DNA of 64,000 bases from a virus: the IMG/VR virus record IMGVR_UViG_3300042446_001683; one strand, 5' to 3'. The notes beneath the pieces are model-generated. The model had not been told where the DNA came from. It saw nothing but the letters and a program-made list of their open reading frames with translations, and ran no database searches. Shown here piece after piece: positions 596-23,937 of the stretch. The position numbers and the translations under genes are program-made. Positions within the stretch are counted from its first letter, which is position 1; every line of letters begins with the position of its first letter.

Positions 596-1393
596 ATGAT
601 AAAACTAACTGACTTACTAAAAGAAGTACAAAATAAACCAAAAGCCATAATAATGGCTGGAGGAGCATCAGTAGGTAAATCAACAATCCTAAAAACAATT
701 GATTCTCAATTAAAAGGATTTGAAAACTTAAATGCAGACAAATATGTAGAAGATAAAGACTCACCAATGTTTGGTAATTTATCTGCTGCCTCATCTCAAA
801 TAAGAAAACAAGATTTACCTAACGCTATAGCAGCTAAACGTAATTTAATTTACGATACCACAGCATCCAATCTATCTACACTTCAACCAACATTAGATAT
901 GTTAAATGAAGGTGGATATGATGTTATGATGTTGATGGTTTATGCTCATCCTATAGTATCATTTTTAAGAAACTATAAGCGTGAACGTAAAGTACCAGCT
1001 GCTGGTGTTTTAGGTACTTGGGCTAATGTTTATAATTTATTAGATGAATATAAAAATATATTTGGAGACAATTTTATTTTAGTAAATACACCATCAGGCC
1101 CAGAAGAAGAAGCAGAAATTGCTAACTTTGAAAAAGCATATAAAGACGGTACTCTAAAAGAATATTTTGACAGTTTATTATCTACAGGTCAATTTACTTC
1201 ATCATTCAGAAAAGATGATACTGAGTTATCACCTGAAGAAAAAGCTAAACGAGAAAAATCAAGAGAAAAAACAAAACAACAACTTTATCAAAACATTGAT
1301 AAAATAGCTAATACTTACGGGGATATTCAATCTAAATTGAATCCCATAGATAGTAAACAATTACCTACTGTTGTTAATAATTTTATTAAATGA
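596..1393 (+). CDS. P-loop kinase, zeta-toxin/AAA_33-like, with putative capsid-targeting leader MIKLTDLLKE
   Basis: Walker A AGGASVGKST, LNAD, YDTT, RERKVP; start moved to ATG 596 because 548-595 spans promoter/terminator sequence. Confidence 0.75.
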   Translation: MIKLTDLLKEVQNKPKAIIMAGGASVGKSTILKTIDSQLKGFENLNADKYVEDKDSPMFGNLSAASSQIRKQDLPNAIAAKRNLIYDTTASNLSTLQPTLDMLNEGGYDVMMLMVYAHPIVSFLRNYKRERKVPAAGVLGTWANVYNLLDEYKNIFGDNFILVNTPSGPEEEAEIANFEKAYKDGTLKEYFDSLLSTGQFTSSFRKDDTELSPEEKAKREKSREKTKQQLYQNIDKIANTYGDIQSKLNPIDSKQLPTVVNNFIK

Positions 1394-3033
1394 GCTCATT
1401 AGTTAAATCACTTATATTACCATTTTTAACTGAGGTTGATTCTTTAGGTGAAGGATTAACTGTAGGTTTATTTGGAGGTGGGTTTCAACCACCAACTAAG
1501 GGTCATCTTGAAGTAGTTAAAAAAGCTATAGAAAAATATAACCCAAACAAATTTATTATATTTGTTGGAACAGGAGGAGGAAGATCAGATATTACTCAAG
1601 ATCAATCATTAGCTATATGGAACATCTATAAAAAGTATCTACCAGATAATGTTGAAATTATACCTTCACCTAACCCAGTATCTTCAATTTATAGATATGC
1701 TAAAGAGCATCCATTTGAGGATATTAAATGGTTTTTAGGATCTAGACAAGGTAATAACCAAGATTTTGAAGATTTTTATAAACGCTCTAAAGCGGTAGAT
1801 ACTCGTGATAATTTAGAAGCAATTAATATTGTCACTGCTAATGATGTTAGTGGTACTAAAGCTAGACAGGTACTAACAGATAAAGAATCATTATTTAACT
1901 ACTTACCAATTGAGTTATCAGATAGTGAAAGAGAAGAAGTATATAGTATACTTAATCCAATGTCTGAAAGTGAAGAAATAACAACTTGGGTTAATGAGGT
2001 TGTACCTGAACCTGAGATTGATGATATTGATGACTATGCTGATAGTGTTTTAAATCCAATTGATATTGACATACCACCTCATTTTATTGATAGAGTTAAT
2101 GATAAACGTAATCGTCCTGGAATTAAAACAGACGAGCTATATGATTTCTTTGATAAACTATCAGATGAAAAAGATGAGTTAGCTAATTTATTAGACCAAG
2201 GAGAAGTAGTAGCAACAGACTCAGATACTGATATTAATATCCCATTAACTAAAGATATTAAAAAAAGTCAATTACGTGATAAAGTAGTAGCGGTAGCTAA
2301 AACTATAATGCGTAAACCTAATTTTCAAACTACAAGTACTAAATTAACATTTGAACAGATTCAAGATGACAGTATAGTTTGTGATGATTGTGGTTGGACT
2401 TGGAAGATAAAAGATGGTGGTGATGATTTATTCATATGTCATAAATGTGGACATGATAATACTCCTAAAGAAACAAATAATTTCTTTGAACCAATCCAAG
2501 ACAAACAATTAGATTTAAACATATCATCAGAACCTACTAGAGTAGATTACTATAAAGATTATTATAAGAATTTATCACCATCAGATTTTAAAGTTGACAA
2601 AGATAAAGACAAAATAATAATATCCAATATTAGTAAAAAAGGTTTAGAAAATAATACTGACTTTATAAAAAAATTAGTATCACTAACAAGTTACATGATG
2701 GATCATATTAATATTGAACCATTACCAGATGTTAATTTTGTTGAAGATGATGTTAAGAATGCTGATGATTTCTTTGGTAAAACAGCGTATTATAACCCAA
2801 ATGATAAATCAATCACGTTATACACACTAAAACGTCATCCTAAAGATGTATTGCGCTCTTTTGCACATGAAATGGTACATCATAAACAAAATTTAGAAGG
2901 AAAATTAAATGATATACAAGGTCAAAATATAAATGAAGACGATTATCTAAAAGAATTAGAACGTGAAGCATATGAGTATGGTAATGGTTTATTATTTAGA
3001 GGTTGGGAAAATTCAATAAAGAAAAATGATTAA
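1390..3033 (+). CDS. Multidomain protein: HIGH-class nucleotidyltransferase + HFxDR..KTIMRK domain + Zn ribbon + zincin (HExxH) peptidase
   Basis: GGGFQPPTKGH and SGTKAR; HFIDRVND..VAKTIMRK; CDDC..CHKC; FAHEMVHHKQ..LEREAYE. Confidence 0.75.
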   Translation: MSSLVKSLILPFLTEVDSLGEGLTVGLFGGGFQPPTKGHLEVVKKAIEKYNPNKFIIFVGTGGGRSDITQDQSLAIWNIYKKYLPDNVEIIPSPNPVSSIYRYAKEHPFEDIKWFLGSRQGNNQDFEDFYKRSKAVDTRDNLEAINIVTANDVSGTKARQVLTDKESLFNYLPIELSDSEREEVYSILNPMSESEEITTWVNEVVPEPEIDDIDDYADSVLNPIDIDIPPHFIDRVNDKRNRPGIKTDELYDFFDKLSDEKDELANLLDQGEVVATDSDTDINIPLTKDIKKSQLRDKVVAVAKTIMRKPNFQTTSTKLTFEQIQDDSIVCDDCGWTWKIKDGGDDLFICHKCGHDNTPKETNNFFEPIQDKQLDLNISSEPTRVDYYKDYYKNLSPSDFKVDKDKDKIIISNISKKGLENNTDFIKKLVSLTSYMMDHINIEPLPDVNFVEDDVKNADDFFGKTAYYNPNDKSITLYTLKRHPKDVLRSFAHEMVHHKQNLEGKLNDIQGQNINEDDYLKELEREAYEYGNGLLFRGWENSIKKND

Positions 3034-3526
3034 ATTAAAAGAGTTATTAGAAGAAGTTGAAAACAACAAATATACTATCTATTGTGATTTAGATGGGGTA
3101 TTAGTTGATTTTGAAAAAGGTTATGAAGAAGCAACAGGCAAACCAATGTCTGCCGCAGGTGAAGGTCCTGAGTTTTGGGAACCAATACATAAAATGGGAG
3201 CTTCATTTTGGATCAAATTAAAATGGTTACCTGATGGACAAACATTATGGAATTATATTAAACCATTTAATCCAACATTACTATCAGCACCTTCACAAGA
3301 AGAATCATCTAAAATAGGTAAACGAGTATGGAAGAAAAATAACTTACCTGATGCTAAAATGATTTTAACACCAGCAAGATTCAAACAAAAATACTCAGGG
3401 GAAAATAAAATACTTATTGATGATATGGAAAAAAATATACAACAATGGAGAGATAAAGGTGGAATAGGAATATTACATACATCTACAGCAGATACAATTA
3501 AACAATTAAAAGAACTAGGATTATGA
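3026..3526 (+). CDS. HAD-family 5'(3')-deoxyribonucleotidase-like protein with leader MIKLKELLEE
   Basis: CDLDGVLVDF motif I, LLSAP, ILIDD motif IV. Confidence 0.8.
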   Translation: MIKLKELLEEVENNKYTIYCDLDGVLVDFEKGYEEATGKPMSAAGEGPEFWEPIHKMGASFWIKLKWLPDGQTLWNYIKPFNPTLLSAPSQEESSKIGKRVWKKNNLPDAKMILTPARFKQKYSGENKILIDDMEKNIQQWRDKGGIGILHTSTADTIKQLKELGL

Positions 3527-3978
3527 AATACAGTTTAGTAAAACTATTAGAAAATGAGGGAGATGAAGCAACATTTTCAATCAATAAACAAACAAATGAT
3601 TTATTGTTAACCCCAATTGGTTCAACTATTGAAAAAGTAAAAGAAGCAATTAAGAATCCTAAGAATTATGAAAAACTATTTGCTAAGATTTCTAAATCAG
3701 CTTTAGAAGATTACTTTGGCCCACAAAATCCAGCCAAAAGAAAATCATTAGAAAAACAAAGAGGAGAAGCATTTCCCACTAAAACGGCTGCTGAAATAAA
3801 TAAATTTAAAGAAAAGTTAGCAAATCCTAATAAATTTAACTTTGAAGTTGAAGGTGAGTCTTTAAGATTCCCTCAATCTAAAAATACACTTACTTTAGTT
3901 CAAATGGAAAATGATTTAAAAGTAATTTTAGATAGTGCTAAAATAAAATGTAATATAGAAAAGGTTCCATCAAAGTAA
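3523..3978 (+). CDS. Hypothetical protein (leader MKYSLVKLLENE)
   Basis: 151-aa ORF tightly coupled to its neighbours. Confidence 0.6.
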   Translation: MKYSLVKLLENEGDEATFSINKQTNDLLLTPIGSTIEKVKEAIKNPKNYEKLFAKISKSALEDYFGPQNPAKRKSLEKQRGEAFPTKTAAEINKFKEKLANPNKFNFEVEGESLRFPQSKNTLTLVQMENDLKVILDSAKIKCNIEKVPSK

Positions 3979-3982
3979 TATT

Positions 3983-4552
3983 ATGGCTGAAAATGTTTTG
4001 AAAAAAGAATTTAAGGAGAAAGATGTACAACGTCTTCGTAACCTTATGCAAGGTAAATATGGTGAAAAAGCTACTGTAGGTACTGGTTATACTAAACAAT
4101 ATGAACATCATGAAGAAGGAGATGTATGGGAAGAAGATGATCGTACTTGGACTATTAAAAATGGTATTAAACAAAATATCACTAAATTAGACAAAGCTAA
4201 AGAGTCTCTTCACTTACCATTATTTTGCCCATGTTGTAATGGAATGATGAAACATAGGTATGATAAGCAGTTTTTTATACAGTATAAAAGATGTTTTAAT
4301 TGTCAAATTGAATTTGAAACTGATCTTAAAAAGAAAGGCTTATGGGTAGAGTACGAAAAACTCATAATCAACTCAGATATTGATGGACTTATAAATGAAT
4401 TTAATATTTGGGTTGATGAAGAAATGAATACTAAAAATGAGTCATTTATAACTGAAGCAGGTGATATGGAACGTTGGTCTGGTAATGCTAAACAAAAACT
4501 TCTTGAAAGTAAAGAAGAAACCATTAAGTATCTTGAGAGCTTGAAAAAATAG
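3983..4552 (+). CDS. Hypothetical Zn-finger protein
   Basis: CPCC...CFNC; GDVWEEDDRTWTIKNGIK. Confidence 0.6.
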   Translation: MAENVLKKEFKEKDVQRLRNLMQGKYGEKATVGTGYTKQYEHHEEGDVWEEDDRTWTIKNGIKQNITKLDKAKESLHLPLFCPCCNGMMKHRYDKQFFIQYKRCFNCQIEFETDLKKKGLWVEYEKLIINSDIDGLINEFNIWVDEEMNTKNESFITEAGDMERWSGNAKQKLLESKEETIKYLESLKK

Positions 4553-4577
4553 CCGATATTTATATATAAAATTAAAC

Positions 4578-4940
4578 ATGGATTTTGTAAAACTAATATC
4601 ATATTTATTCCATTCTCGTACCCAAGCTCACATATTCCATTTACAAACACAGTCATATGCTGAGCATATGGCTTTAAATGTTTACTATGATGGAATTGTA
4701 CCATTAATTGATGGTATTGTAGAAGCATACCAAGGTAAATACGGTATTGTAAAAGGTTACTCTAATTTTAATCTAATGGAGTATAATAATACTCAACAAG
4801 TAGTAGCGTACTTAGACGCATTATGTAAAGCAGTTTATGAAGTATACCAATCAACTGAGGACACTAACATACAAAATTTACTAGATGGAATTACAGATTT
4901 AATTAAATCAACTATCTACAAATTACAAAACTTACGATAA
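4578..4940 (+). CDS. Ferritin/Dps-like four-helix protein (DUF5856-like)
   Basis: H-x-x-H-L...YAEHMAL..YY...D..VEAYQGKYG and C-terminal YKL pattern. Confidence 0.7.
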   Translation: MDFVKLISYLFHSRTQAHIFHLQTQSYAEHMALNVYYDGIVPLIDGIVEAYQGKYGIVKGYSNFNLMEYNNTQQVVAYLDALCKAVYEVYQSTEDTNIQNLLDGITDLIKSTIYKLQNLR

Positions 4941-5149
4941 TGGCTTTTAAATATAAATTAACTGAAGACAAATATGCTGGAACACAAGGCATGTTTAAAG
5001 ATCTTTTAGATAAATGGAATGCTGAAGATAAAGAAAAAGAAGCTGAAATAGCTAAACTCCCTCAAAATCTTCAAGATAAGATTAAAGGCATCGCTAAAGA
5101 AGCATTATCTAAAAAGAAATGTTATGAGTGCAAAACCATTAAAAAATAA
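4940..5149 (+). CDS. Small hypothetical protein (MAFKYKLTE leader)
   Basis: 69-aa ORF with TAATG coupling to the previous gene. Confidence 0.5.
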   Translation: MAFKYKLTEDKYAGTQGMFKDLLDKWNAEDKEKEAEIAKLPQNLQDKIKGIAKEALSKKKCYECKTIKK

Positions 5150-5169
5150 CATATTTATAATAAAATACA

Positions 5170-5532
5170 ATGAGTACTAAATTAAAATCATTAATACAAC
5201 AAATCATCAAAGAGGAAGTTGCTTTATTTGAAAAGAAAAAGAAAAAAGACGAATTACCTCCTCTAGATGTTGATGTTGATGTTGACGCTGAAGTAGCACC
5301 CGCTGAAGAAGCACCTATAGATGACTTATCTACTGACCCAAATATAGACATGAATATGGGAGCAGATATGGGTGGTGATTCAATTGAAAAACAAGTTGGC
5401 CAAGGCTTACAAACAGCATTAGACGCTGCTAAGCAACTACCAGACGGAGAAAATAAAGATAAATTAGTACGTCAAATTGGAAACACCGCTTTATTCTTTT
5501 TGAAAACACAAATCACTAAAGATCAAGCATAA
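5170..5532 (+). CDS. Acidic hypothetical protein with leader MSTKLKSLIQQIIKEE
   Basis: ORF preceded by ATATTTAT motif at 5151. Confidence 0.6.
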   Translation: MSTKLKSLIQQIIKEEVALFEKKKKKDELPPLDVDVDVDAEVAPAEEAPIDDLSTDPNIDMNMGADMGGDSIEKQVGQGLQTALDAAKQLPDGENKDKLVRQIGNTALFFLKTQITKDQA

Positions 5533-5555
5533 TATAAACCAAACAAATAAAATCT

Positions 5556-5729
5556 ATGAACAGTCAAGAGTTATTAGAAAGAATGCAAGAGTTATTCGAG
5601 TTATTAGTAGCAGAACACTCAAAACCAGCAAAAGCAGCACATGGACGTGCTCGCAAAACAGCAGGTGAGATTAAGAAGGTAATTGCGGAATACCGTAAAG
5701 CTTCTACTGCTGAAGACAAAGCGAAATAA
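5556..5729 (+). CDS. Histone H1-like (Hc1-type) small basic protein, 57 aa, not in the ORF track
   Basis: Hand translation MNSQELLERMQELFELLVAEHSKPAKAAHGRARKTAGEIKKVIAEYRKASTAEDKAK matches the Hc1 core pattern KAA..RARK...E..K....RK.S; A-rich upstream region; followed by a hairpin. Confidence 0.7.
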   Translation: MNSQELLERMQELFELLVAEHSKPAKAAHGRARKTAGEIKKVIAEYRKASTAEDKAK

Positions 5730-5749
5730 GAATTGTAAATTTGAGTTAT

Positions 5750-5775
5750 AGGGGAGCAATGCTCCCCTTAACTTT
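5750..5775 (+). terminator. Probable intrinsic terminator
   Basis: AGGGGAGC-AAT-GCTCCCCT stem followed by TAACTTT. Confidence 0.6.
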
Positions 5776-5788
5776 AAAATAAATAGAT

Positions 5789-6457
5789 ATGCCATACAAA
5801 TTAAAAGGCAAATGTGTTTATAATAAAGAGACAGGTAAGAAGAAAGGATGTTCTTCATCTGTTAAAAAAGCTAAGGCTTATATGAGAGCTCTATATGCTT
5901 CTGAACCTATTAATGAGGGATTATCAGACGCAGTCTTAGACAGAGCAAAAGATGTATACTCAGCTATGAAAGCTGATGATAAAGCAATAATGAATGCTGT
6001 TGCTAAACATGGTAATAGCGCAGAAAATATATTGTGGGGTCGCGCAATCAACACAGCTAAAAAACAAGTACAGACTATGAGTGATACTAAATTAAAAGAA
6101 GTAATTAAAAAAGCATTATCTACACCTCCAGTAAGTGAGAAAAAAAGTAAAGAATTTCCTGACTTAACAGGTGATGGTAAAGTAACTAAAGCTGATATAT
6201 TAAAAGGACGTGGGGTAGATCTTAAAGAAGAAGTTGATTATGAAGGAGAAATGGCTAAATCTGAATTATATCGCTTAGTTAAAAACTCTCAAGAGTTAAT
6301 GCAAATGTTAGATGACGATACTCAATTAGAAGCATGGGTACAAAGTAAGATCACTAAAGCAGCTGACTATATAGCATCAGTTAGCCAATATTTAGGATTT
6401 CAAGCAGCTAACAAGCCAGAAATAGACGAAAGAACAGAATACACTTTAGATAAATAA
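5789..6457 (+). CDS. Modular putative internal head protein
   Basis: Basic Cys module, PINE junction, internal leader-like MSDTKLKEVIKKAL, EF-hand-like DLTGDGKVTKADIL, LKEE junction, YEGEMAKSEL..WVQSKITKAADY domain. Confidence 0.6.
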   Translation: MPYKLKGKCVYNKETGKKKGCSSSVKKAKAYMRALYASEPINEGLSDAVLDRAKDVYSAMKADDKAIMNAVAKHGNSAENILWGRAINTAKKQVQTMSDTKLKEVIKKALSTPPVSEKKSKEFPDLTGDGKVTKADILKGRGVDLKEEVDYEGEMAKSELYRLVKNSQELMQMLDDDTQLEAWVQSKITKAADYIASVSQYLGFQAANKPEIDERTEYTLDK

Positions 6458-6458
6458 A

Positions 6459-7016
6459 ATGGCAAGTAAAAAGGAACTAGTAGATAAAATACAAGCTATA
6501 GCTAAACGTGTTTATGCTGCTAAAACAGCAGGTGAAACATCAATAGAAGCACAAGAAGATACATTTGGTGTTACACCAGATGATGTTAACTTTGAGGAAG
6601 AATTATTTCCTGTATTAGCTAAATTTCCTAAACTAAAAGAAGTTATAATAGATTTACTTACAGACCAATATGGAGATTTTATATCTGATATATGGTGGGT
6701 AGCTCCTCGTCCTACTACATTTAAAATTATATTAGCTAATGATCAACATTTCTATCTAATATACACTGAACGTTCTTGGATTGCTCAAGTTGAAGGTAAA
6801 AAATTCTATTTAGCTAGTTTAAATGAAGAACAACGTGCTGCAGCAGCTATAGCTCGTATATTACGCTATGGTGGAGGAGCAGAACCAGATAAAGACTCAC
6901 CAGTAGGTGAAGTACCAACAGGAGGAGAAATACCAGCAGATGAAACAACCCCAGAAACACCAACTGAAGAAACACCACCAACTGAAGAAACACCTGAAGA
7001 AACATTACCAGCATAA
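6459..7016 (+). CDS. Hypothetical protein with E/T/P-rich C-terminal repeat
   Basis: VAPRPTTFKI core; ETTPETPTEETPPTEETPEET tail. Confidence 0.6.
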   Translation: MASKKELVDKIQAIAKRVYAAKTAGETSIEAQEDTFGVTPDDVNFEEELFPVLAKFPKLKEVIIDLLTDQYGDFISDIWWVAPRPTTFKIILANDQHFYLIYTERSWIAQVEGKKFYLASLNEEQRAAAAIARILRYGGGAEPDKDSPVGEVPTGGEIPADETTPETPTEETPPTEETPEETLPA

Positions 7017-7018
7017 TA

Positions 7019-7345
7019 ATGAAAAAATTAAATAAGTTCCTTAATCATCCTGTATTACCTTGGGTATTAGTAATATTATTAGTGTCATTATTAATTATAA
7101 AAAGTCTTAAACCAGACCCAAGACCAGTAACACCTCCAGTTGATAATCGTATAGATAGTTTAAGTCATATTGTAGATTCATTGAATAAATCATATATTAA
7201 ACTAAAACAAGATTATGATAGTGCTCAATTAAATGTTAAAACAGAAATCCAATATATCCAAATAAAAAATGCTAAAGACATTTCTAATATCCATAATTTT
7301 ACTATTGACCAACGTGATAGCATGTGGTCAACACTTAACCCCTAA
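7019..7345 (+). CDS. Putative i-spanin (Rz-like)
   Basis: N-terminal TM segment, Pro-rich linker, coiled coil; overlaps the next gene by 77 nt. Confidence 0.5.
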   Translation: MKKLNKFLNHPVLPWVLVILLVSLLIIKSLKPDPRPVTPPVDNRIDSLSHIVDSLNKSYIKLKQDYDSAQLNVKTEIQYIQIKNAKDISNIHNFTIDQRDSMWSTLNP

Positions 7346-7721
7346 ACGTATTGTCTTTAGCGGTGATACTGGTATATTTTTTACTAATAAACAAGAAATT
7401 GAGTTATTAGTAAAATTTAAACAACTTGAGGGTTGTAAACTTGAAATTGAAAAATGGAAAAGATATGCTAATGATGCTGATTTACAAATTGATAGAGAAA
7501 GAGAAGCATATACTTATTTAAATAAAGAGTATAAAAGTTTATTAACTGTATCTAAAGACTTCCAAAAGAAATATAATGATGAATATACTGCTCATGAGAA
7601 TACAAAAATTAAATTAGATAAAGCTGTTAATATTAAAAACAAATGGGTTAAATCAACATTTATAACAGGTGGAGTAGCAGTAATAATTATAGCACCTTTA
7701 GTTTATTTATTAGTTCATTAA
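7269..7721 (+). CDS. Putative spanin-like lipoprotein with C-terminal TM
   Basis: Signal peptide with lipobox VIAC (Cys19), coiled coil, hydrophobic C-terminus. Confidence 0.5.
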   Translation: MLKTFLISIILLLTNVIACGQHLTPKRIVFSGDTGIFFTNKQEIELLVKFKQLEGCKLEIEKWKRYANDADLQIDREREAYTYLNKEYKSLLTVSKDFQKKYNDEYTAHENTKIKLDKAVNIKNKWVKSTFITGGVAVIIIAPLVYLLVH

Positions 7722-7733
7722 ATATTTATCAAT

Positions 7734-8933
7734 ATGAATATATTTGATAAATTCCTACATAGCGTTTCTTACAAATTCCCTAAGGGTTACCCAGATATGA
7801 GTAACCCTACTGATATTTCATTACTTGAATCTTTAATAAGTGAAGTATTAGGGCAAAGTGTAAGTTTAAATGAAGGTAGTATGAAACAAAATACAGTTAA
7901 AGCAATTCAAACTATTCTTAATTCAGAATTAGGTAAAAAATATAATTTTAAACCTCAAACAGATTGGTCTCGTTTAGGAAATATGGACAAAATATCTCCA
8001 GATCAATTCTTAGAAATTATTAAAAATACTTTTAATAATCCTCAAGTAACTATACTTAAACCTAAAGAAGGAGAAAATCCAAGTTCTAAATATAATATGT
8101 ATTTATTCACTACTTCTGAAGGTCCTGTTAAAATAATATTATCTGGTGGGGCTAATTTAGGTGAAAAATATGAAAGCAACTTCTATGATAAAATTAAATC
8201 ATCAGCTGGTACTTCATTAGAAGATATAACTGACCCTGATTTAAGAGAATTATACAATAAAATAGGCATTGATCCTGAAGATATCACCCCAGAACAAGTA
8301 ATACAAACTGGAAATAAAGGTACTAAACGTCCTATTGATTTTAATGGTCCTGAAAATAAAGGAGAAACAATATCAGATATAACAATTTTACCTGACACTT
8401 ATCTATCTATTAAAAATATAGCAGGTAGTGGATTTTATAATGGAGGAATCATTCCATTTATTGTCTTTGAAGATGGTAAAGTAGTTTATGATCCTAGTAA
8501 ATTTAATATTAAACCTGTTATAGCTCAATTATTTGAAACACTTAATATTGATCCTGAAAAGGTAGCCCAAGGATTAAATGAATATGCTACTAAACAAGGT
8601 GATATGTCTAACACATATGAAAATATAAGTGTAACTAATTCTGAAGATCTTAAAAAATTCATAGCATCAGGATATGATTATGGATACTGGTATGTTCGTG
8701 AAAAAGATAAAGGATTATTTGTTTATGATAATAGAACAGAAGATGATGTCTATAAATTTGTTGGTGATATAAAAAATGTTAGTGTTAAGTATCCTAATAA
8801 AGAGACAAAAACATTAACAGTAAAACTAATAGCAGACAGCCCAGTATTAGGCCCAGTAAATTATCTTATTGAAATACGAGATACTCAAGGTAAAGGAATA
8901 TTACCACTAAGTTTAAAAATAAGAACAACATGA
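7734..8933 (+). CDS. Putative PD-(D/E)XK restriction-endonuclease-like protein with N-terminal pro-region
   Basis: GEKYE helix, ISDITI...YLSIK motif; pro-region ends at SLNE. Confidence 0.5.
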   Translation: MNIFDKFLHSVSYKFPKGYPDMSNPTDISLLESLISEVLGQSVSLNEGSMKQNTVKAIQTILNSELGKKYNFKPQTDWSRLGNMDKISPDQFLEIIKNTFNNPQVTILKPKEGENPSSKYNMYLFTTSEGPVKIILSGGANLGEKYESNFYDKIKSSAGTSLEDITDPDLRELYNKIGIDPEDITPEQVIQTGNKGTKRPIDFNGPENKGETISDITILPDTYLSIKNIAGSGFYNGGIIPFIVFEDGKVVYDPSKFNIKPVIAQLFETLNIDPEKVAQGLNEYATKQGDMSNTYENISVTNSEDLKKFIASGYDYGYWYVREKDKGLFVYDNRTEDDVYKFVGDIKNVSVKYPNKETKTLTVKLIADSPVLGPVNYLIEIRDTQGKGILPLSLKIRTT

Positions 8934-9574
8934 AACAACTAATAATAGAAGCAATAAAATCAGCTTTACTAGAACAACCTAATGTTGCTCCAACATTAAA
9001 TGAATCTAAACAATATAATTCTCCTATATCTGAGGAAATGAGATACCATATCTCTAATAAAATCCAAATCCATGAAAATATATTTCGTCCTGGTTCTAAA
9101 TCACATATAGAGTTAATTCATGAAGCTCGTATACTATGGAAACAAGGTATTATTGAACTTCAAGCTGAAGATAAAAAATTATTTGAAAATACAGATTTAG
9201 GTCGTTTTGGGATGTTTGAAGGTGAAATAGTACCTTTAGACTTACCAATGATGGAATTAGAAATATTAACAGAAGTAGAATTAGAAGAAGAAAAGAAACA
9301 ACCAGCGTTAGGTAAACCAAAACGTGGTGGTTCTAAAAAATTCTATGTTTATGTTAAAGATCCTAAAACCAAACGTATTAAAAAAGTATCATTTGGTATG
9401 GCAGGTGGTGGACTACGTGCTAAATTAAATAACTCTAAGGCACGCTCAGCATTTTCTAAACGTCATAACTGCCCACAAAAGAAAGATAGAACAAAAGCTA
9501 GTTACTGGTCATGTCGTCTTCCTCGTTACGCAAAGTTATTAGGATTTAAAACAACATTTTCAGGATTCTGGTGA
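8930..9574 (+). CDS. Two-module putative head protein with basic C-terminal KVSFG..RHNC..YWSCR domain
   Basis: Leader MKQLIIEAIKSALLE; acidic junction EILTEVELEEE before the basic module. Confidence 0.6.
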   Translation: MKQLIIEAIKSALLEQPNVAPTLNESKQYNSPISEEMRYHISNKIQIHENIFRPGSKSHIELIHEARILWKQGIIELQAEDKKLFENTDLGRFGMFEGEIVPLDLPMMELEILTEVELEEEKKQPALGKPKRGGSKKFYVYVKDPKTKRIKKVSFGMAGGGLRAKLNNSKARSAFSKRHNCPQKKDRTKASYWSCRLPRYAKLLGFKTTFSGFW

Positions 9575-9575
9575 T

Positions 9576-10034
9576 ATGAATATTACACAATTAATAGAAC
9601 AAATTCTTTTAGAAGAAAAGAAAAAAGCAGATCGCTGCAAACGTATTGCTGATCGTCGCTATGATAAACCATCTGCTTATAAGTCAGGTGCTATTGTTAG
9701 ATGTCGTAAAGGTAAAATTTGGAAAGACTTAAAAGAAACAGATGATCCACAATCTGGTAAAGCAGCTCCTTATGGATCAGGATATGCTAGATTAAAAGAA
9801 GTAATTCAAAAAATATTAAATGAAGACGAATCACTTTATAAATGGTTTAAACGTAGAGGTGCTAAAGGTAAAGAAGGTGGATGGGTAGATTGTAATGCAC
9901 CTGATGGAAAAGGTGGATATAAATCTTGTGGTAGAAAAGAAGGCGAAAAACGGGCTAAATACCCATCATGTCGTCCTACACCAGCTGGATGTAAAAAGAA
10001 AGGCAAAGGTAAAACTTGGGGTAAAACAAAATGA
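9576..10034 (+). CDS. Basic Cys-rich modular protein
   Basis: Leader MNITQLIEQILLEE; modules SAYKSGAIVRCRK, GKAAPYGSGY and WF..W..C..CGR..YPSCRP separated by LKE/LNE. Confidence 0.6.
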   Translation: MNITQLIEQILLEEKKKADRCKRIADRRYDKPSAYKSGAIVRCRKGKIWKDLKETDDPQSGKAAPYGSGYARLKEVIQKILNEDESLYKWFKRRGAKGKEGGWVDCNAPDGKGGYKSCGRKEGEKRAKYPSCRPTPAGCKKKGKGKTWGKTK

Positions 10035-10390
10035 TTAAATTAGTAGATATACTAAATAAAATCCTATTAGAAGGTGATCCTAAAGTAGGTACTGGTAAAA
10101 AACCTAAAGGTTCAGGTCGTCGTTTATACACAGATGAAGATCCAACGGACACAGTACGTATTAAATTTAAAACTGTTCAAGATATTAAAGATACTTTATC
10201 TAAAACATCATTTAAGTCAAAACCACACGCTCGTAAATCCCAAATTATTAATTTAATTCACCAACGTGTTAGAGCGGCTTATGGTAGAGCTAAAGATCCT
10301 GAAGTAAAAAAACGTTTAAAAAATGCTTTAGAATACATCACAACTAAAAAAGAAGCATCTAAAAAGAAAACTAAATCTATAAAAAAATAA
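10031..10390 (+). CDS. Basic protein (RRLYTDEDP domain) with leader MIKLVDILNKILLE
   Basis: 119-aa Lys/Arg-rich ORF. Confidence 0.6.
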   Translation: MIKLVDILNKILLEGDPKVGTGKKPKGSGRRLYTDEDPTDTVRIKFKTVQDIKDTLSKTSFKSKPHARKSQIINLIHQRVRAAYGRAKDPEVKKRLKNALEYITTKKEASKKKTKSIKK

Positions 10391-10391
10391 T

Positions 10392-11015
10392 ATGTTAAAT
10401 ATTGATATCCCTAGTTTTAAAGCTTTAGTACGTAAATCATATTTTACAAAAAATTCAAAAGACACTGAGATTTTTTTAAACGTATATGTTTTTGGGGCCC
10501 AATCTATATCTGGGAAAATATTAACATTCCATGTTATGACTGATGATGGAATGGTCCGTAATAGAGTACCAATATCAGAAATATACACCAAAGTACCAAA
10601 AAATGATATCCCATTCCATTATAAACAATTATGGGATTGTTTCTCAGAAAATGTAGCTGTTATAGCTTATGACTTCTTAGCATATCATAAAGCACAAGTT
10701 GTATTAAAAGATGGTTCTAAAATTTGGGGTACATATTTATTTACTATAGATTGGTATAACAACCCATATAGTGATGAACCTTCAGATTATAAATGTGGTC
10801 ATATATTTAAAGCAGATGATGGATATTTACTTTGTCAACCTAATAATAGAATATTTTGGAAAGACTCAAATTGGGTAACTAAATCTCTCCCAGAAGATTT
10901 AAAACAATTTAAAGTAGATACTGAACTACCATCAGTTGAAAATCAATCTGATAGATGGGTAACTGAAGATGGGGATGCATTTTATTATGATGTTAATAGA
11001 ATAATAAATAAATAA
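10392..11015 (+). CDS. Hypothetical phage protein
   Basis: QLWDCFS, YLFTIDW, KCGHI and QPNNRIFW motifs. Confidence 0.6.
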   Translation: MLNIDIPSFKALVRKSYFTKNSKDTEIFLNVYVFGAQSISGKILTFHVMTDDGMVRNRVPISEIYTKVPKNDIPFHYKQLWDCFSENVAVIAYDFLAYHKAQVVLKDGSKIWGTYLFTIDWYNNPYSDEPSDYKCGHIFKADDGYLLCQPNNRIFWKDSNWVTKSLPEDLKQFKVDTELPSVENQSDRWVTEDGDAFYYDVNRIINK

Positions 11016-11039
11016 CCCATATTTATAATAAATTTTGTA

Positions 11040-14000
11040 ATGAGTAATATTCATAAATTAATAGAACATTTAGTTAACAATTGGTCAAACAATTTATCTG
11101 AGGCATTAGCTCCAAGAGTTAAGCAACAGTTAATGGATAAATTTAAGCAAGAAGCAGATGATTTTAACATTACAATCTCAGATACAAATTTAAGTGACTA
11201 TATTGACTATTTTGATACTCGATTAAAAAATAATCCTAAAGTAACTGAAAAAGATTTAGCTAAGTACCCATTAAAATCATTAATTAAACTTGTATCAGCT
11301 TATAAAGGTTCAAGTAAAGAAGATGATGATGAAGATGTATCAAATATACCAGACGTTGTTTATAATGAAAATGGTCTTATAATTTATAGTGGTCATAATG
11401 AAGAAAACTGTTTAAAGTTTGGTAGAGGTGAGCAATGGTGTATCACTAAAGGATCATTTGGTAATTATCGCTATGATTCAAATAGAAAAAATCCAACATT
11501 TTATTTAGTAAAAGATACTAACTTACCAAATAGTGATAGAAAAAGTTTCTTTGTTGTTGTAGTAGGTAGTGATAATACTTACAAAGTATCAGATAGATCA
11601 AACAATGATGTTGGTGGTAGAGGAACAGAATGGAACAGATGGGAACCATGGTCATTTGTTGAACAAAATTTCCCATCAGTTCAAGGTTTAGAAAGAATAT
11701 TTAGATACATTCCTGTTAGTAAAGTTGAGCTATCAACTCGTCAATATGCTAATCAAGCTATGACTGTTGAAGAATGGGAAGTAGCACCACCAGATTTTAA
11801 AGAACGATATCTTATTATTAGAAAAGGAAAAACACTTTTTTCTGATATATCTAATGAAAAGTTTGTAAAAACTATTCTCCCAGACAATCAAGATATGGCT
11901 ACAGTAGTAGCTAAAAACTATGGGATGATAGATTTAAATACTTTATTACAAGAATTTGATTCTTTCTCTAACCAAAATCAAAAATCAATCATAGCTAACG
12001 CTCGAAGATTTACAAAAGTATCTACAGAAACTTTAAAATCACGTGGTATTCCTTTTTCAGCTAAAAAAGCAGTAGTTAATGGTGGATTACTTGATGTTCC
12101 TAATAGTGAAAGATACTATGTTTCTAATGATGATAAGGCTATAATTAAATTAAAATTTAATGGTGATGATGTATCAATGGGTTTATTTACTGAGAAAGAT
12201 ACATATCCTAATGTTAAAATAAACACTCGTACAAGTAGTATATTAAAAAGTTTACCTAGATTTGATGAGATGCCTTTTGATGCTTTATTAAAGTTAACAA
12301 AAGATAATCTTTTACCTAAAGACACTGTTGATAAAGTAATTGAAAAATCAAAAGAAGAAGACTCTAAATCAGCTATCGTAACAGCTAATACTGATGAAGG
12401 CGAGATAGTGTTAGATACAAATACTTTTAAAGCATATAAACCTGAAAATGGAGAATATACACCAGTACCATTTGAAGATGACTCTGTTCAAAGTATATTA
12501 AAATCAGACACAGTAGGTAGTGGTATTCAAGATGGTATTATAAGGATGATTTCAAAATTTGATAGCATCCCTTCATCAATACCTATGTCAACTATATCCT
12601 CAATAGTGAAACAAACTCCATCAGAAAAAAGAATAGTAAGAAAAGGAGATGATAATTTCATAATAATACCTAGTAGTACAGGGAATGAACTTAATTTATG
12701 GAATACAAATAATCCTTTAGATAGAAGTTCTGTAGCATTTAATTATAGAGAAGATGGAAGATTTGGTAGTGGAAAAATGGCAAATCAAGAAATATGGTCT
12801 GAATATTTTAATTATTTAAGATCTCAAAATTTAGCTTATGATTCTACTCAACTCCTTCCTTTAGCTAGTTCTCAATATTACGCTGGAGCAAAATTCTTAG
12901 CAGCTAATCCTCCTTTAACAGCTGATAACACATACAAACCTGCTCAATATGAAGGAACATGGTATATTATAAATCAAAATAATCCATCTGAGAGTAGAAA
13001 ACTTAGTCCACAAACAGGTAATTTACTTAGAGCTAATCTTACCCCAGCTAAAGTAGCTATAATACTAGGAACAAGACCACCTGCGGGAGCAGTTAGAGGT
13101 ACTAGAACACCTAGAACAGCAACCGCAGCAGCGGCTACACCACCTACAACTACTGGCCAAGTAAATGATGCTGTACGACAAGCAATTGTTGGAGCAGGTT
13201 TAGAACAAGGATTTACTGCCTTACCAGCTCCACTTAGAAGTAGAATATTATCAGGTACATTAGTAGCTAATGACAATGGAGTAGCAGGTCGTAATAGAGC
13301 ATTAGGAGACAGAGGACGAGTTACTAGAATTATATCTGCTGGTCAAAGTAGAATGTATATCATTCGTTTAGCTAGTGGTACTATGATAGGACAAGCATCA
13401 TTCCAACCTGAGGCAAGACACTTTATTATAACCGCTACTAGCGCGTTTAATATGGGTAGAGTAGGTAACTTTATAGATGCTTTAACAGCTCGTAACTTAC
13501 GTGAAACAGAAGACATATTACGAATAGCAATGGGAGCAGCAACACCAGAAGAACTAGAGGAAATTAAATCTAAAGTTAAAACTAAACCTTATAAAGATTT
13601 AGAAGTAACTAATGAACATATTATTCGTGAGTTTGATGAGAATATTGATCCTATTGAATTAAAATGGCATCGTGATAATGAAAACCGAATAGTAGAAATT
13701 GTAGGTAAAACTGATTGGAAAATACAATTAGAAAATCAACTACCAATTTCTATGAATCAACCTATTACAATACCTAAAGGTGAATGGCATCGTGTTATTA
13801 AAGGTAATGGTAAGTTAACTTTAAAGATAATTAAAGAAGAATCTACTCAATACAATATTGAAGGATTATTATTAACTAACACTGAAGATCGTCCACAAAA
13901 AGATATATTATCTGATATACGCTCATTACCTGGTATAACAATTGTATCAAGTAAAGATTATGACTTATCAGGTGAATCATCTGCATTTAGCAATCCTAAC

Positions 14001-14153
14001 TACTATACAATAATTAAAATGAAAGTAGATCCACATCCATATCCTAATGGATTTAAAGATGAAGATTTACAACAATTATTTACTGACATTAGAGCAATTA
14101 AAGGTGTTAGAAATTTCAAATTAAATAAATCTGTAGAGAAAAAAACTGTATAA
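11040..14153 (+). CDS. Large polyprotein-like protein: WCIT domain, central region, cupin domain, C-terminal small domain
   Basis: GEQWCIT..FYLV; cupin WHRD..W..QL..IPKGEWHRVIKG (about 13584-13840); junctions NLSE, NLRE, IIKEE. Confidence 0.65.
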   Translation: MSNIHKLIEHLVNNWSNNLSEALAPRVKQQLMDKFKQEADDFNITISDTNLSDYIDYFDTRLKNNPKVTEKDLAKYPLKSLIKLVSAYKGSSKEDDDEDVSNIPDVVYNENGLIIYSGHNEENCLKFGRGEQWCITKGSFGNYRYDSNRKNPTFYLVKDTNLPNSDRKSFFVVVVGSDNTYKVSDRSNNDVGGRGTEWNRWEPWSFVEQNFPSVQGLERIFRYIPVSKVELSTRQYANQAMTVEEWEVAPPDFKERYLIIRKGKTLFSDISNEKFVKTILPDNQDMATVVAKNYGMIDLNTLLQEFDSFSNQNQKSIIANARRFTKVSTETLKSRGIPFSAKKAVVNGGLLDVPNSERYYVSNDDKAIIKLKFNGDDVSMGLFTEKDTYPNVKINTRTSSILKSLPRFDEMPFDALLKLTKDNLLPKDTVDKVIEKSKEEDSKSAIVTANTDEGEIVLDTNTFKAYKPENGEYTPVPFEDDSVQSILKSDTVGSGIQDGIIRMISKFDSIPSSIPMSTISSIVKQTPSEKRIVRKGDDNFIIIPSSTGNELNLWNTNNPLDRSSVAFNYREDGRFGSGKMANQEIWSEYFNYLRSQNLAYDSTQLLPLASSQYYAGAKFLAANPPLTADNTYKPAQYEGTWYIINQNNPSESRKLSPQTGNLLRANLTPAKVAIILGTRPPAGAVRGTRTPRTATAAAATPPTTTGQVNDAVRQAIVGAGLEQGFTALPAPLRSRILSGTLVANDNGVAGRNRALGDRGRVTRIISAGQSRMYIIRLASGTMIGQASFQPEARHFIITATSAFNMGRVGNFIDALTARNLRETEDILRIAMGAATPEELEEIKSKVKTKPYKDLEVTNEHIIREFDENIDPIELKWHRDNENRIVEIVGKTDWKIQLENQLPISMNQPITIPKGEWHRVIKGNGKLTLKIIKEESTQYNIEGLLLTNTEDRPQKDILSDIRSLPGITIVSSKDYDLSGESSAFSNPNYYTIIKMKVDPHPYPNGFKDEDLQQLFTDIRAIKGVRNFKLNKSVEKKTV

Positions 14154-14154
14154 A

Positions 14155-14757
14155 ATGAACAAAGAATTTTTAAAAATGCAAAAAACGGCTGGTTTAATAA
14201 CTGAAAGCCAATATGCTACTCTAATAGTAGAATCTGAAGAGCAAGAAATAGATCAAGCATTATCATCAGGAGTTAACGCTTTACAAGATTTAAGTTCTTT
14301 AGATGAAATTGAAGAACAACCTCTTGAAGAATCAGTTGTAGGTTTAGTAATTAGTGGATTATTAGCCGCTCCAAAATTAATAGAATGGTTAGGAAAAGGT
14401 ATAAGTATTATAACTAGACCATTTGTTGGTAAAGATGAAAATACTGTAGCCAAAAATATTATTAAATTTGGCCATAAATGGGAAAAATTTTATATAAAAG
14501 CTATAATAGCTGCTATTAAATTTACTAAATTTGGTAAACAATTATGGATGTTACCTGATAATAAAATAGATGAACAAAAATTAGTATCACTAGCTAAAAT
14601 ATTATATGGTGTAATTCTAAGTATAGCAGCTGGTAACGCTTTAAAAACTGTATTAAGTAGTTCTCATCCTATCTTAACAGCTATTGAAAGTGCTTTAGGT
14701 GGGGTTAAAGCGATAGAAATAGCTCAAATAGCATCTAAAGTTAAAGGACAAATTTGA
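14155..14757 (+). CDS. Putative internal head protein with hydrophobic helices and N-terminal FLKMQKTAGLITE motif
   Basis: Motif shared with the scaffold C-terminus; hydrophobic segment follows PLEE. Confidence 0.6.
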   Translation: MNKEFLKMQKTAGLITESQYATLIVESEEQEIDQALSSGVNALQDLSSLDEIEEQPLEESVVGLVISGLLAAPKLIEWLGKGISIITRPFVGKDENTVAKNIIKFGHKWEKFYIKAIIAAIKFTKFGKQLWMLPDNKIDEQKLVSLAKILYGVILSIAAGNALKTVLSSSHPILTAIESALGGVKAIEIAQIASKVKGQI

Positions 14758-14792
14758 TAAAAACACACATATTTATAATAAAATAAAACAAA

Positions 14793-16244
14793 ATGGAAAT
14801 TAACAGACTACGTTCAATCATAAGAGAATCAATTAGCAACAATCTTAAAGAGATTGAAGATGTTGCAGAAAACGCAGCAATGGAAGCTAAATTAAATGCT
14901 TACACTGAAGCTATTGATAAAGTAAACAAAAAAATTGAAATGGCTGAAAGCCTTGAAGAAATGCAAGAATTAGTAGATCCTACTAAATTAAATGAACTTA
15001 AAAAACATTTAAAAACTCTTGAAAAATCTAAAGAAAAATTAGAAAAGGTTAAAGCTAAGAAAAACAAAGGTAAAGAAGTAGTAACTGACGAACCAGTTGA
15101 AGAAGCTGAAGTTGAAGAAGGAAGTGCAATGGATAGTATGGATAATGCTATAGTTCCTGAAATGGATTACACAATGGAGGAAGAAGAAGCAATAAATGAA
15201 TCATTCCTTAAAATGCAAAAATTAGCAGGTGTAATTACTGAAGCTCAATACAATCAAAAAAAAAGATTAATTGAGAATCAATTAGAAGAAATATCATTAT
15301 CTGGAGCTTTAAATAAAGTTAAAGATAAGATAGCAAGTTTACCTGCTTTTGATAAACTTATTAATTCTGTTGTGACTAAAATGTCTGAAAAAGACAAAGA
15401 AAACTTTAAAGCTAAATTTAATTTAGCTGAAGCTAAAGGTGCTCCTTCTTTAGAAGATATAATGACTAAAGTAGATGCTATCAACCTAGATAAAGATGCT
15501 AAAACTCCTGAAGATTTAAAAGAAGGAGCTGAAGAAACAGTAGACAAAATAGCATACGAAGTTGTAAGATTAGTTAAAAATTTAACTGGTCTAAACCTAT
15601 TAGCATTAGGTGGTCTTCCATTTGGATTTGTTATTAACTATTTAATAGATATGAGTCCATGGAGTTTCGGAGCATTCGTAGGCCCAGTTATTAGTTTAGT
15701 AGCATCATTAATAATCCATGGTATATCCAGAAAAATTTTAGGAATATCTCCAGATGATGAACTAATTGGAGAATCTGAAGACCAACAAGAAGCACCAACA
15801 CCAGAAAAAATAGCAAAAGATATTGCTAATAATATAGATCAATTAAAATCAAATCCTAAATTAAAAGCTATAGCTGATAAGATAGCTGCTGACCCAAAAG
15901 CAACAGAAGAATTAAATAAAATATTAGCTAAATTTAATATTTCTTTAAATGAAGGAGATATTGATGTTAATCCTCAAGATGTTTATAAAATAGCTTTAGC
16001 TTTTGCTAAAAAAGCAAAAACATTAGGTGAAGAAGAAGGTAATTATGGAGCATTATTTTTAGGTGGTTTATTTGGAGGAGGTGCTTTAGCTCGTTATATA
16101 GCTAGTCTTGGAGATATTATAACCCCAGAAATGAAAATGTTAGGATATTCTCCGTCTCATATGACAGCTGCTGTCCTTGGAGGTTTAGCAGCCGCTGCTT
16201 TATTAATGATAGGCCAGTATATATATGACAATTACAAAAAATAA
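14793..16244 (+). CDS. Putative internal head polyprotein with membrane-type segments and internal FLKMQKLAGVITE motif
   Basis: Leader MEINRLRSIIRES; many [IL]xE junctions; two Gly-rich hydrophobic hairpins. Confidence 0.6.
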   Translation: MEINRLRSIIRESISNNLKEIEDVAENAAMEAKLNAYTEAIDKVNKKIEMAESLEEMQELVDPTKLNELKKHLKTLEKSKEKLEKVKAKKNKGKEVVTDEPVEEAEVEEGSAMDSMDNAIVPEMDYTMEEEEAINESFLKMQKLAGVITEAQYNQKKRLIENQLEEISLSGALNKVKDKIASLPAFDKLINSVVTKMSEKDKENFKAKFNLAEAKGAPSLEDIMTKVDAINLDKDAKTPEDLKEGAEETVDKIAYEVVRLVKNLTGLNLLALGGLPFGFVINYLIDMSPWSFGAFVGPVISLVASLIIHGISRKILGISPDDELIGESEDQQEAPTPEKIAKDIANNIDQLKSNPKLKAIADKIAADPKATEELNKILAKFNISLNEGDIDVNPQDVYKIALAFAKKAKTLGEEEGNYGALFLGGLFGGGALARYIASLGDIITPEMKMLGYSPSHMTAAVLGGLAAAALLMIGQYIYDNYKK

Positions 16245-17646: not shown

Positions 17647-17670
17647 AGACTATACATAACATTTGACATG

Positions 17671-17705
17671 AAGGGTTTGGCTTTGCCGGACCCTTTTGTT
17701 ATATT
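17671..17705 (+). promoter_or_regulatory. Terminator hairpin fused with class A promoter TTTGGC-N18-TATATT
   Basis: AAGGGTTTGGC-TTT-GCCGGACCCTT stem contains the TTTGGC box at 17676; TATATT at 17700. Confidence 0.65.
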
Positions 17706-17726
17706 TAGCTATAATTATAAATACTT

Positions 17727-18920: not shown

Positions 18921-18937
18921 AATACAAATGTTATATT
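18908..18937 (+). promoter_or_regulatory. Class A promoter TTTGGC-N18-TATATT
   Basis: Recurrent motif. Confidence 0.65.
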
Positions 18938-18958
18938 TAATTAAAATAAATAAAGGTT

Positions 18959-20152: not shown

Positions 20153-20154
20153 TT

Positions 20155-21264: not shown

Positions 21265-21286
21265 TATTTATACGTAAACAATATTA

Positions 21287-21769: not shown

Positions 21770-21989
21770 ATTAAACGAATATATTCAATTATATTTAAAC
21801 GACTTAGAAGACTATGGCGACAGTCAAACTGATTTATTAATAGCTGAATCAACATTAAATACATTCAAGTTATTATTAGTTGAATCTAATCAAGATGTTC
21901 CAACTATATTACGTGAAGCTATAACAAAGTCAGAACATGAACAGCGTGAAGTGTTTGAAGATTTCTTAGATTATCTAGAAAATATATAA
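21750..21989 (+). CDS. Small acidic hypothetical protein
   Basis: 79-aa ORF. Confidence 0.5.
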   Translation: MKVSKNKLNEYIQLYLNDLEDYGDSQTDLLIAESTLNTFKLLLVESNQDVPTILREAITKSEHEQREVFEDFLDYLENI

Positions 21990-21995
21990 CACTTG

Positions 21996-22025: not shown

Positions 22026-22044
22026 TAATAAATAAATTAATAAC

Positions 22045-23913: not shown

Positions 23914-23937
23914 TACCTCCCTTAATAAGGGTTACTT

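Follow-up and report, generated by a model that had tools for sequence, protein, structure and literature searches.

Genomic context of the leader-bearing genes

The window analyzed in this study, i.e., the whole stretch of 64,000 nucleotides of the virus record IMGVR_UViG_3300042446_001683, has a G+C content of 30% and is coding almost entirely on its plus strand, which is the strand of the cluster and head-module genes described below. As judged from its sequence, it is a T4-type phage relative with a Flavobacterium-type host. The present analysis concerns a cluster of 21 open reading frames (ORFs) at positions 596–16244, many of which begin with short leaders ending in the motif [IL]-x-E (Ile or Leu, any residue, Glu), and the relationship of these leaders to the head module at 23407–33317, most of whose products carry the same motif.

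The head module resembles that of T4 in possessing a gp20-type portal, a gp21-family protease, a gp22-like scaffold and a gp23-type capsid protein with a homologous propeptide site. It consists of the TerL gene (23938–25509), the portal gene (25536–27419; PF07230, 4e-69), three head-core genes for which no family was named and which occupy the portal/protease interval at the positions of T4 gp67 and gp68 (27457–29716), a Peptidase_S77 (T4 gp21 family) prohead protease (29718–30326; PF03420, 9e-29), an acidic scaffold analogous to gp22 (30527–31588) and the major capsid protein (31620–33317; PF07068, 2e-72), whose profile match starts at residue 78, behind an N-terminal propeptide of approximately 60 residues. 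Directly 5' of TerL, gene 23407–23913 encodes a charged protein of 168 residues with a class B leader (see below) and the sequence L-G-E at residue 20, which returned no family match in profile searches, while contractile tail genes are located downstream of the head module.

A megablast search of the head module against GenBank phages returned no DNA-level match, and relatives were found at the protein level. Among cultured phages, Flavobacterium phage vB_FspM_immuto (NC_055915, hereafter immuto) is the closest relative, with a capsid protein identity of 55%, and it is syntenic with the window over both the cluster (kinase-like, NadR-type nucleotidyltransferase, NT5C and other genes) and the head module. 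The immuto record labels the cluster genes as hypothetical or metabolic and does not mention leaders. Related contigs compared with the window are labelled L002–L008, the near relatives being 92–94% identical to it.

Leader-bearing genes of the cluster

Three leader types were discerned in the window, where genes are named by their start position. Class A leaders are approximately 10–14 residues long and of the type MIKLTDLLKE (genes 596, 3026 and 10031), class B leaders comprise about 20 residues of the type MKKSQLRQIIKE.. (genes 5170, 14793 and 23407), and a third type, ..MQK.AG[LI]ITE, heads gene 14155 as well as immuto ORFs 25061 and 111675 and L007 ORF 13551. The N-termini that an earlier, sequence-only reading of this DNA had quoted as leaders were all recovered where it had placed them. 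However, its proposal that the whole 15 kb shares a leader did not hold, as about nine of the 21 ORFs lack one, and the large payload that it envisaged was overstated: credible tags are present on about 10–12 of the 21 ORFs, i.e., those at 596, 3026, 3523, 5170, 8930, 9576, 10031, 11040, 14155 and 14793, with doubtful ones at 1390 and 4940, whereas the others are untagged or membrane proteins and probably represent ordinary late accessory genes. The cluster is a mix and not a uniform cargo cassette.

The first gene (596–1393) encodes a P-loop kinase resembling zeta/PezT and adenylate kinases (PF06414, 1e-12), with zeta/PezT, adenylate and polynucleotide kinases as its Foldseek neighbours. Its class A leader, MIKLTDLLKE, has a predicted cut after Glu10 and is invariant in 16 orthologues, all of which start at the position matching 596. 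The first ATG of the ORF, at 548, lies inside a copy of a promoter-like motif (542–549; see below), and this, together with the orthologue starts, places the start of the kinase at 596; automatic annotation from ATG 548 would give it 16 spurious residues. The adjacent gene (1390–3033) encodes a multidomain, NMNAT-like nucleotidyltransferase (PF01467, 3e-5) with a possible leader extending to L-T-E at residue 15, which is retained only in the 92–94% relatives, the immuto and L008 orthologues beginning differently; this protein also produced a weak Peptidase_M91 match, below the cut-off. It is followed by a HAD 5'-3' deoxyribonucleotidase of the NT5C type (3026–3526; PHROG 2643) with a variant class A leader and a predicted cut after Glu9/10, by an unassigned protein of 151 residues with a 12-residue leader to L-x-E-x-E (3523–3978) and, further downstream, by an acidic protein of 120 residues (5170–5532) with a class B leader of about 20 residues that is kept in the L007 orthologue, and with a promoter motif of its own (5151).

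Three consecutive, translationally coupled genes (8930–9574, 9576–10034 and 10031–10390) encode small, very basic, tagged proteins with an isoelectric point of 9.7–10.3, the second of which contains DUF5872; L007, L008 and immuto retain these leaders. By analogy, these proteins appear to be the best counterparts of the T4 internal proteins in the cluster. Gene 11040–14153 encodes a protein of 1037 residues with a leader-like segment of 21–31 residues (sites at Glu9 and Glu21) and a promoter motif at 11019, for which no Pfam, PHROG or PDB match was obtained. In L006 and L007 its two parts are encoded by separate ORFs, with a class B-led gene of 72–84 residues between them; the window ORF is a fusion that lacks this intervening gene together with approximately 340 residues of the downstream ORF.

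A protein of 200 residues with a leader of the third type, a predicted cut after Glu17 and hydrophobic, Gly-rich segments is encoded at 14155–14757. The last gene of the cluster (14793–16244) specifies a chain of three modules totalling 483 residues, in which module 1 starts with a class B-like leader of 20 residues, the joints contain ..AGVITE at about residue 150 and ..ISLNE at about residue 385, and modules 2 and 3 possess transmembrane-like segments. In L006, L007 and immuto these modules are separate ORFs, each of which starts with the motif that is internal in the window. Its ESM Atlas model is poorly ordered (pLDDT, i.e., predicted local distance difference test, 0.42), ESM Atlas look-ups of this protein and of 8930–9574 returned only unnamed phage clusters, and PDB sequence searches with 11040–14153, 14793–16244 and 1390–3033 gave nothing usable. 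By comparison with SPN3US gp47 (PMC5694885), the layout of 14793–16244 would fit that of protease-cut polyproteins or ejection proteins.

Of the cargo labels proposed by the sequence-only reading, nuclease and cupin could not be attached to any ORF in 596–16244, and its peptidase corresponds to the sub-threshold M91 match.

Enrichment of the [IL]xE motif at N-termini

To quantify the motif, ORFs were counted in which [IL]xE ends inside the first 20 residues, and the null expectation was derived from 2000 shuffles in which each N-terminus was shuffled alone with its composition kept. The cluster was found to contain the motif in 13 of its 21 ORFs, compared to a shuffle mean of 6.4, and none of the 2000 shuffles reached 13. 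The head module was also enriched (eight of nine ORFs; shuffle mean 3.3; P=0.001). The late genes at 16366–23381 (three of nine; shuffle mean 1.6; P=0.19) and the tail genes of the window (three of 24; shuffle mean 4.2; P=0.84) showed no such enrichment, and the lack of a tag on the former indicates that it is not general to late non-structural genes. The background frequency of the motif, as determined from internal 20-residue windows, was 19%. A stricter pattern, [ILV]xx[ILV][ILV]xE, was present in six cluster ORFs against 0.6 expected, while neither the reversed motif E-x-[IL] nor [IL]xD was comparably enriched in the same N-termini. Furthermore, Glu is favoured over Lys beyond its composition share in the N-termini of the cluster.

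The complete genome of immuto, subjected to the same N-terminal count, served as a replicate. The motif was present in 14 of the 20 ORFs of the syntenic cluster (P<0.001) and in seven of the nine head genes (P=0.003), but in only 13 of 77 replication and nucleotide genes, 11 of 61 glycosyltransferase and early genes, two of 15 baseplate genes and three of 30 neck and tail genes. The sequence-only reading had accepted in advance that it would fall if leaders were no more frequent in the cluster than among early and replication proteins; with 14 of 20 against 24 of 138, it withstood this comparison. In both the window and immuto, only the cluster and the head module are enriched in the motif, with replication, early and tail genes at background.

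Charged residues (Asp, Glu or Lys) recur at every two to four positions of the amphipathic leaders, which are therefore not Sec or lipoprotein signal peptides, as this spacing of charges leaves no uncharged hydrophobic core. A compositional artefact was likewise rejected on the basis of the shuffles within N-termini and of the tail, replication and early controls.

Portability of the leaders

A back-translated scan of IMG/VR located the kinase decapeptide MIKLTDLLKE 102 times in viral contigs; in 89 cases it stands at an ORF start without an upstream in-frame ATG. When families were defined as the bodies that remain after removal of the leader and that are unrelated to each other by BLASTP, this decapeptide was shown to head 14 mutually unrelated families, and the 12-mer MKKSQLRQIIKE, taken from immuto, to head 17 unrelated families. 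The leaders starting with the latter run on to a conserved second [IL]xE at residues 18–20, of the ..VLNE type. The same leader residues are encoded by different synonymous codons and the upstream DNA is unrelated, which indicates that the peptide and not a DNA cassette is conserved. Some of the tagged genes have their own promoter motif, while others overlap the previous stop codon. A shared DNA cassette consisting of a promoter and first codons, similar to the T4 PeSL arrangement, was consequently rejected, given the unrelated upstream DNA, the translational coupling of several tagged genes and the codon differences.

Comparison with the 92–94% relatives showed that bodies have been swapped behind a constant leader at 3523 (in L003 and L005), 10031 (in L005, behind the same first ten residues), 14155 (in L004) and 23407 (in L002). 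Exchange of the body behind the leader has likewise been described for T4-type internal proteins (PMC3012670). A crude substitution count of the leader versus the next 35 codons was confounded by these swapped bodies and was not used as evidence.

A protein of 574 residues, encoded between the protease and the scaffold in 19 related contigs, starts with the class A tag, and the next gene has a class-B-like leader. This tagged protein (in L045) was considered as a scaffold homologue and rejected, as the true scaffold is encoded further downstream. The S77 protease was found in three of the four long contigs (41–78% complete) that bear the tag.

A fourth N-terminal motif, ..F[DN]LKKFL.ENKLT.. 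followed by ..L[LK]E, was observed in small ORFs of immuto (103806, 117631 and 118632) and L008 (12465), with one such gene located directly upstream of TerL; it is not present in the window.

Position of the leaders relative to folded domains

The claim that the leader precedes the folded domain was corroborated by profile and structural data. The PHROG 2643 match of the NT5C protein (3026–3526) begins at residue 12 (6e-25), and the DUF5872 profile in 9576–10034 also begins downstream of the leader. In the AlphaFold2 model of the NT5C protein the leader forms a helix with a pLDDT of 56 ahead of a fold that begins at about residue 15 and whose core scores above 95, while in that of the kinase residues 1–10 have a pLDDT of 54 and strand 1 starts at residue 16, the modelled cores of both proteins exceeding 85. 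Among 111 NT5C homologues with a readable N-terminus, 84 carry a class A leader and the others represent at least two further extension types; [IL]xE is located at most 16 residues before strand 1 in 104 of the 111, and two are leaderless and begin at the fold. Similarly, L008 ORF 2839 possesses a class A leader of 14 residues, whereas its immuto orthologue gp089 (53% identity over 305 residues) is leaderless, and the first residue of gp089 coincides with the predicted P1' position of the L008 leader. The leaders are outside the folded domain and separable from it.

Late-promoter-like motif

The motif ATATTTAT(A) occurs in 26 plus-strand copies, of which 21 sit 12–39 nucleotides upstream of a start codon, compared to approximately one expected from the share of the window that lies at this distance. 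The earlier suggestion that the cluster shares this motif with the structural genes was confirmed, since six copies, at 542 (542–549), 4556, 5151, 7722, 11019 and 14769, serve the cluster genes 596, 4578, 5170, 7734, 11040 and 14793, respectively, and others precede gene 23407, the portal gene, gene 27457 and most of the head and tail genes. In immuto, the motif is located upstream of the TerL, sheath, tube and hub genes, while in the early region of this phage it precedes two isolated tagged genes, with class A and ..AGIITE leaders. ATATTTAT is read as a putative late promoter, for which the T4 late promoter TATAAATA represents an analogue.

The late-promoter-like motif is also found 48 nucleotides upstream of the immuto GroES gene (40247–40600), which, by analogy with T4 gp31, suggests that chaperonin expression may be timed with capsid protein folding.

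The head protease and its predicted cut sites

In T4, the catalytic residues of gp21 are H85 and S140 and cleavage takes place after Glu in I/LxE (PMC12991175). The protease encoded in the window exhibits 34% identity to T4 gp21 by BLASTP, with His74 and Ser127 aligning to H85 and S140, and both residues are invariant in a lineage-wide alignment; as all of the 120 matches listed in a homologue search were at least 95% identical, the diversity for this alignment was taken from the loci. The lineage proteases all open with ..[LV][LI]IE at residues 6–8 (L-I-E at residue 7 in the window), comparable to LIE-9 at the N-terminus of T4 gp21 (PMC9026906).

Past residue 20, the largest excess of [IL]xE was found in the head-core protein encoded at 27457–28311 (16 versus 5.2 expected; 14 versus 5.6 in its immuto counterpart), followed by 9576–10034 and 8930–9574 in second and third place. 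The body of the protease contains six such sites versus 2.2 expected and the scaffold (30527–31588) 18–21 versus 11–12, the 1.6–3 fold excess in core proteins being as in T4, where the counts are 16 versus 5.7 for gp22, seven versus 2.4 for gp21 and five versus 1.9 for gp68. The T4 portal is not processed (PMC5694885), and the portal of the window has no N-terminal [IL]xE site.

The maturation cut of gp23 occurs after residue 65 and releases a 65-residue propeptide (PMC5694885, PMC9026906). Glu65 of T4 (L-T-E) aligns with an invariant Glu that is part of V-I-E60 in the window and V-S-E in immuto, so that P3 probably also accepts Val. The gp23-site alignment and the core-protein excess are indirect evidence that specificity for cutting after Glu may have been kept in the lineage protease.

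Proposed role of the leaders

The leaders constitute a tag that is portable, lies outside the fold, ends in the motif of the head protease and is confined to the head genes and the cluster, and a protease of the appropriate family with its catalytic residues is encoded in the same window. The sequence-level predictions that could be tested for a T4-type targeting propeptide hold, while compositional and DNA-cassette accounts fail, and hence a targeting role is favoured. For the credibly tagged set, we assign a probability of roughly 0.6 to the short leaders being capsid-targeting propeptides of the T4 type, that is, to both targeting and cleavage.

From the sequences we infer docking, cleavage, virion retention and injection as follows. 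The tagged proteins would be made late, from the promoter type common to the head and tail genes, and their amphipathic leaders would dock them onto the scaffolding core of the assembling prohead. The gp21-family serine protease (29718–30326) would then cut the leader off after the Glu of [IL]-x-E and would concurrently trim the propeptide of the capsid protein and cut up the core proteins. The mature proteins would be retained alongside the DNA inside the head, and at least a part of them would enter the host with it. Candidate cargo comprises the P-loop kinase, the NT5C nucleotidase, the three small basic proteins, the two proteins with membrane-type segments, the 1037-residue protein and several unassigned proteins.

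The nearest precedent is the T4 capsid-targeting sequence (CTS), which consists of the first ten residues of IPIII and whose processing depends on residues 8 and 10 (PMC9026906). As in that system, an N-terminal peptide of 10–20 residues is common to otherwise unrelated proteins, has the [IL]-x-Glu site of a gp21-family protease at its end and is conserved in front of highly variable cargo sets, which include small basic candidates. The cleaved ten-residue propeptide of T4 gp24, MAKINELLRE, presents the same pattern as the class A tag (PMC5694885). As they are unrelated in sequence to the T4 internal-protein tag, the leaders described here represent an analogue or distant variant of the T4 CTS and not the same tag. 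They differ from it in that at least three tag classes exist in parallel, that across the lineage one tag is found on at least 14 families and another on at least 17, including a P-loop kinase and an NT5C nucleotidase, that tag motifs also occur at the joints of multi-module proteins, and that the system belongs to a phage of a Flavobacterium-type host and is known from sequence alone.

Many head proteins of the giant phages phiKZ, 201phi2-1 and SPN3US are also cut after Glu by a gp21-type protease (PMC5694885, PMC7411985, PMC10052503). These phages likewise encode paralogues with identical N-terminal residues, their propeptides are multi-site and the mature portion of some of their ejection proteins contains membrane segments, comparable to those of 14155 and 14793. 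In contrast, their motif is mostly (S/A/G)-x-E, their propeptides often exceed 100 residues and their portal is processed, whereas the portal of the window is site-free as in T4 and the genome is of approximately 160 kb. Immuto shares the leader classes, the enrichment pattern and the promoter-like motif with the window, although some of its orthologues are untagged (gp089) or carry another leader class; its tagged proteins include gp087 (NT5C), gp231, gp230 and gp072.

Several observations weigh against a targeting role. [IL]xE on its own is weakly specific, as approximately 17–19% of any N-termini match it, and TerL, which matches in the window, does not do so in immuto. The T4 internal-protein tag MKTYQEFIAE, of which T4 has two copies, is unrelated in sequence to the leaders. 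Enzymes such as kinases, nucleotidases and NMNAT-like proteins normally act in cytoplasmic metabolism and have no obvious need for packaging, and the class B-led gene 23407 occupies the place expected for the small terminase. In the L008 orthologue of 8930–9574 (7461–8219), the leader-like segment is internal and follows a 43-residue Cys-rich, zinc-ribbon-like extension, and it represents either a junction between two modules of one protein or an exception to the rule that leaders are N-terminal. The co-occurrence of tag and S77 protease may reflect mere common descent within one phage lineage, and a literature search found no virion proteomics for immuto or its lineage.

The leaders could also be head-protease propeptides that have no part in delivery, marking auxiliary core or scaffold proteins, or zymogen-like proteins, that are trimmed or degraded and mostly leave the head, so that no enzyme would be injected. 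T4 gp67, gp68 and gp22 provide the model for degraded core proteins of this kind, and the motif indeed marks the true core proteins, relatives have tagged genes within their head modules, and several of the tagged proteins are charged, poorly ordered and without a known family. This explanation nevertheless appears rather unlikely: the kinase and the NT5C protein possess a single N-terminal site and the bodies of the cluster ORFs contain no [IL]xE excess (62 versus 57 expected), which fits trimming and not degradation, and T4 Alt is an enzyme that is retained in the head and injected (PMC9026906).

A further explanation, also unlikely in our view, regards the leaders as docking peptides for a partner other than the prohead, such as a modifying enzyme like those of ribosomally synthesized and post-translationally modified peptides, a chaperone, or a membrane or other late assembly, with [IL]xE as a by-product of an amphipathic helix. 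Both [IL]xE and [IL]xK are common in helices of this type with a high content of Leu, Ile, Lys and Glu, and the latter was found in 43% of the cluster, yet Glu is preferred over Lys beyond composition, which the shuffles control. Immuto encodes GroEL/GroES as a possible chaperone partner. Pfam and PHROG scans of all ORFs at 9–23381 returned no maturase (radical SAM, cyclase or similar), leaving the S77 protease as the only consistent partner found. Moreover, the motif is situated just before the fold in at least three unrelated NT5C extension types and is enriched in the head core, while tags are absent from tail and replication proteins. That the leaders have no function at all, and result from AT-rich codon usage and start constraints in a host without Shine-Dalgarno sequences combined with an after-the-fact choice of examples, is very improbable. 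N-termini are generally rich in Lys, Leu, Ile and Glu and the G+C content is low, but shuffling within N-termini removes the signal, it is not seen in the tail, replication and early genes of these phages, and identical peptides of 10 or 12 residues head 14 and 17 unrelated families, respectively, with varied codons, which for practical purposes refutes this explanation.

Extending the targeting role to the lineage as a whole, we tentatively propose, as a possibility held with distinctly less confidence, that an abundant freshwater and Baltic lineage of Flavobacterium-type, T4-like phages operates a plug-in delivery system in which any protein with one of two or three short tags is loaded into the prohead, freed by the head protease and injected with the DNA, including folded enzymes (a kinase and a deoxyribonucleotidase) and chains of modules that would be cut at their tag-like joints, with exchange of cargo genes behind the tag even among near-identical genomes, resulting in an injected proteome that is larger and more enzymatic than that of T4. 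If so, T4-type protein delivery would extend beyond a few small internal proteins to a general and evolvable route for ready-made enzymes at infection, and this route would belong to a phage group that is common in natural waters. The combination of the tag and a gp21-type protease would provide a sequence rule for predicting virion cargo from metagenomes, the kinase, nucleotidase, basic DNA-binding proteins and membrane-active modules would become candidate early-acting effectors, and the ten-residue tag could be used for loading foreign proteins into Bacteroidota phages. Since immuto and its host, Flavobacterium sp. LMO8, are in culture, the targeting role is directly testable.

Untagged genes of the cluster and neighbouring genes

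The untagged genes of the cluster include 3983–4552, 7734–8933, the pair 5789–6457 and 6459–7016, and 10392–11015, the last of which matches a PHROG annotated as ‘ferredoxin’, while 4940–5149 has no firm tag. Gene 4578–4940 encodes an untagged, Dps/ferritin-like DUF5856 protein (PHROG 858) and 5556–5729 an untagged, 57-residue homologue of the chlamydial histone-like protein Hc1 (PF07432, 2e-7), in which the N-terminal motif match lies inside the domain; by their families, both may act in DNA compaction. An untagged overlapping pair (7019–7345 and 7269–7721) displays signal-peptide-like hydrophobic N-termini, that of 7269–7721 being lipoprotein-like (..LLLTNVIAC), and the two are predicted to be membrane or exported proteins.

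Outside 596–16244, a PD-(D/E)XK nuclease ORF (9–542) is cut by the start of the window. The untagged late genes at 16366–23381 encode an FAD/NAD(P) oxidoreductase, a DUF2201 metallopeptidase/VWA protein together with a MoxR-type AAA ATPase, a DUF6884 protein and an AAA_28 (NadR kinase-like) protein. The AAA_28 gene and the NMNAT-like gene at 1390 hint at a possible role in NAD salvage.

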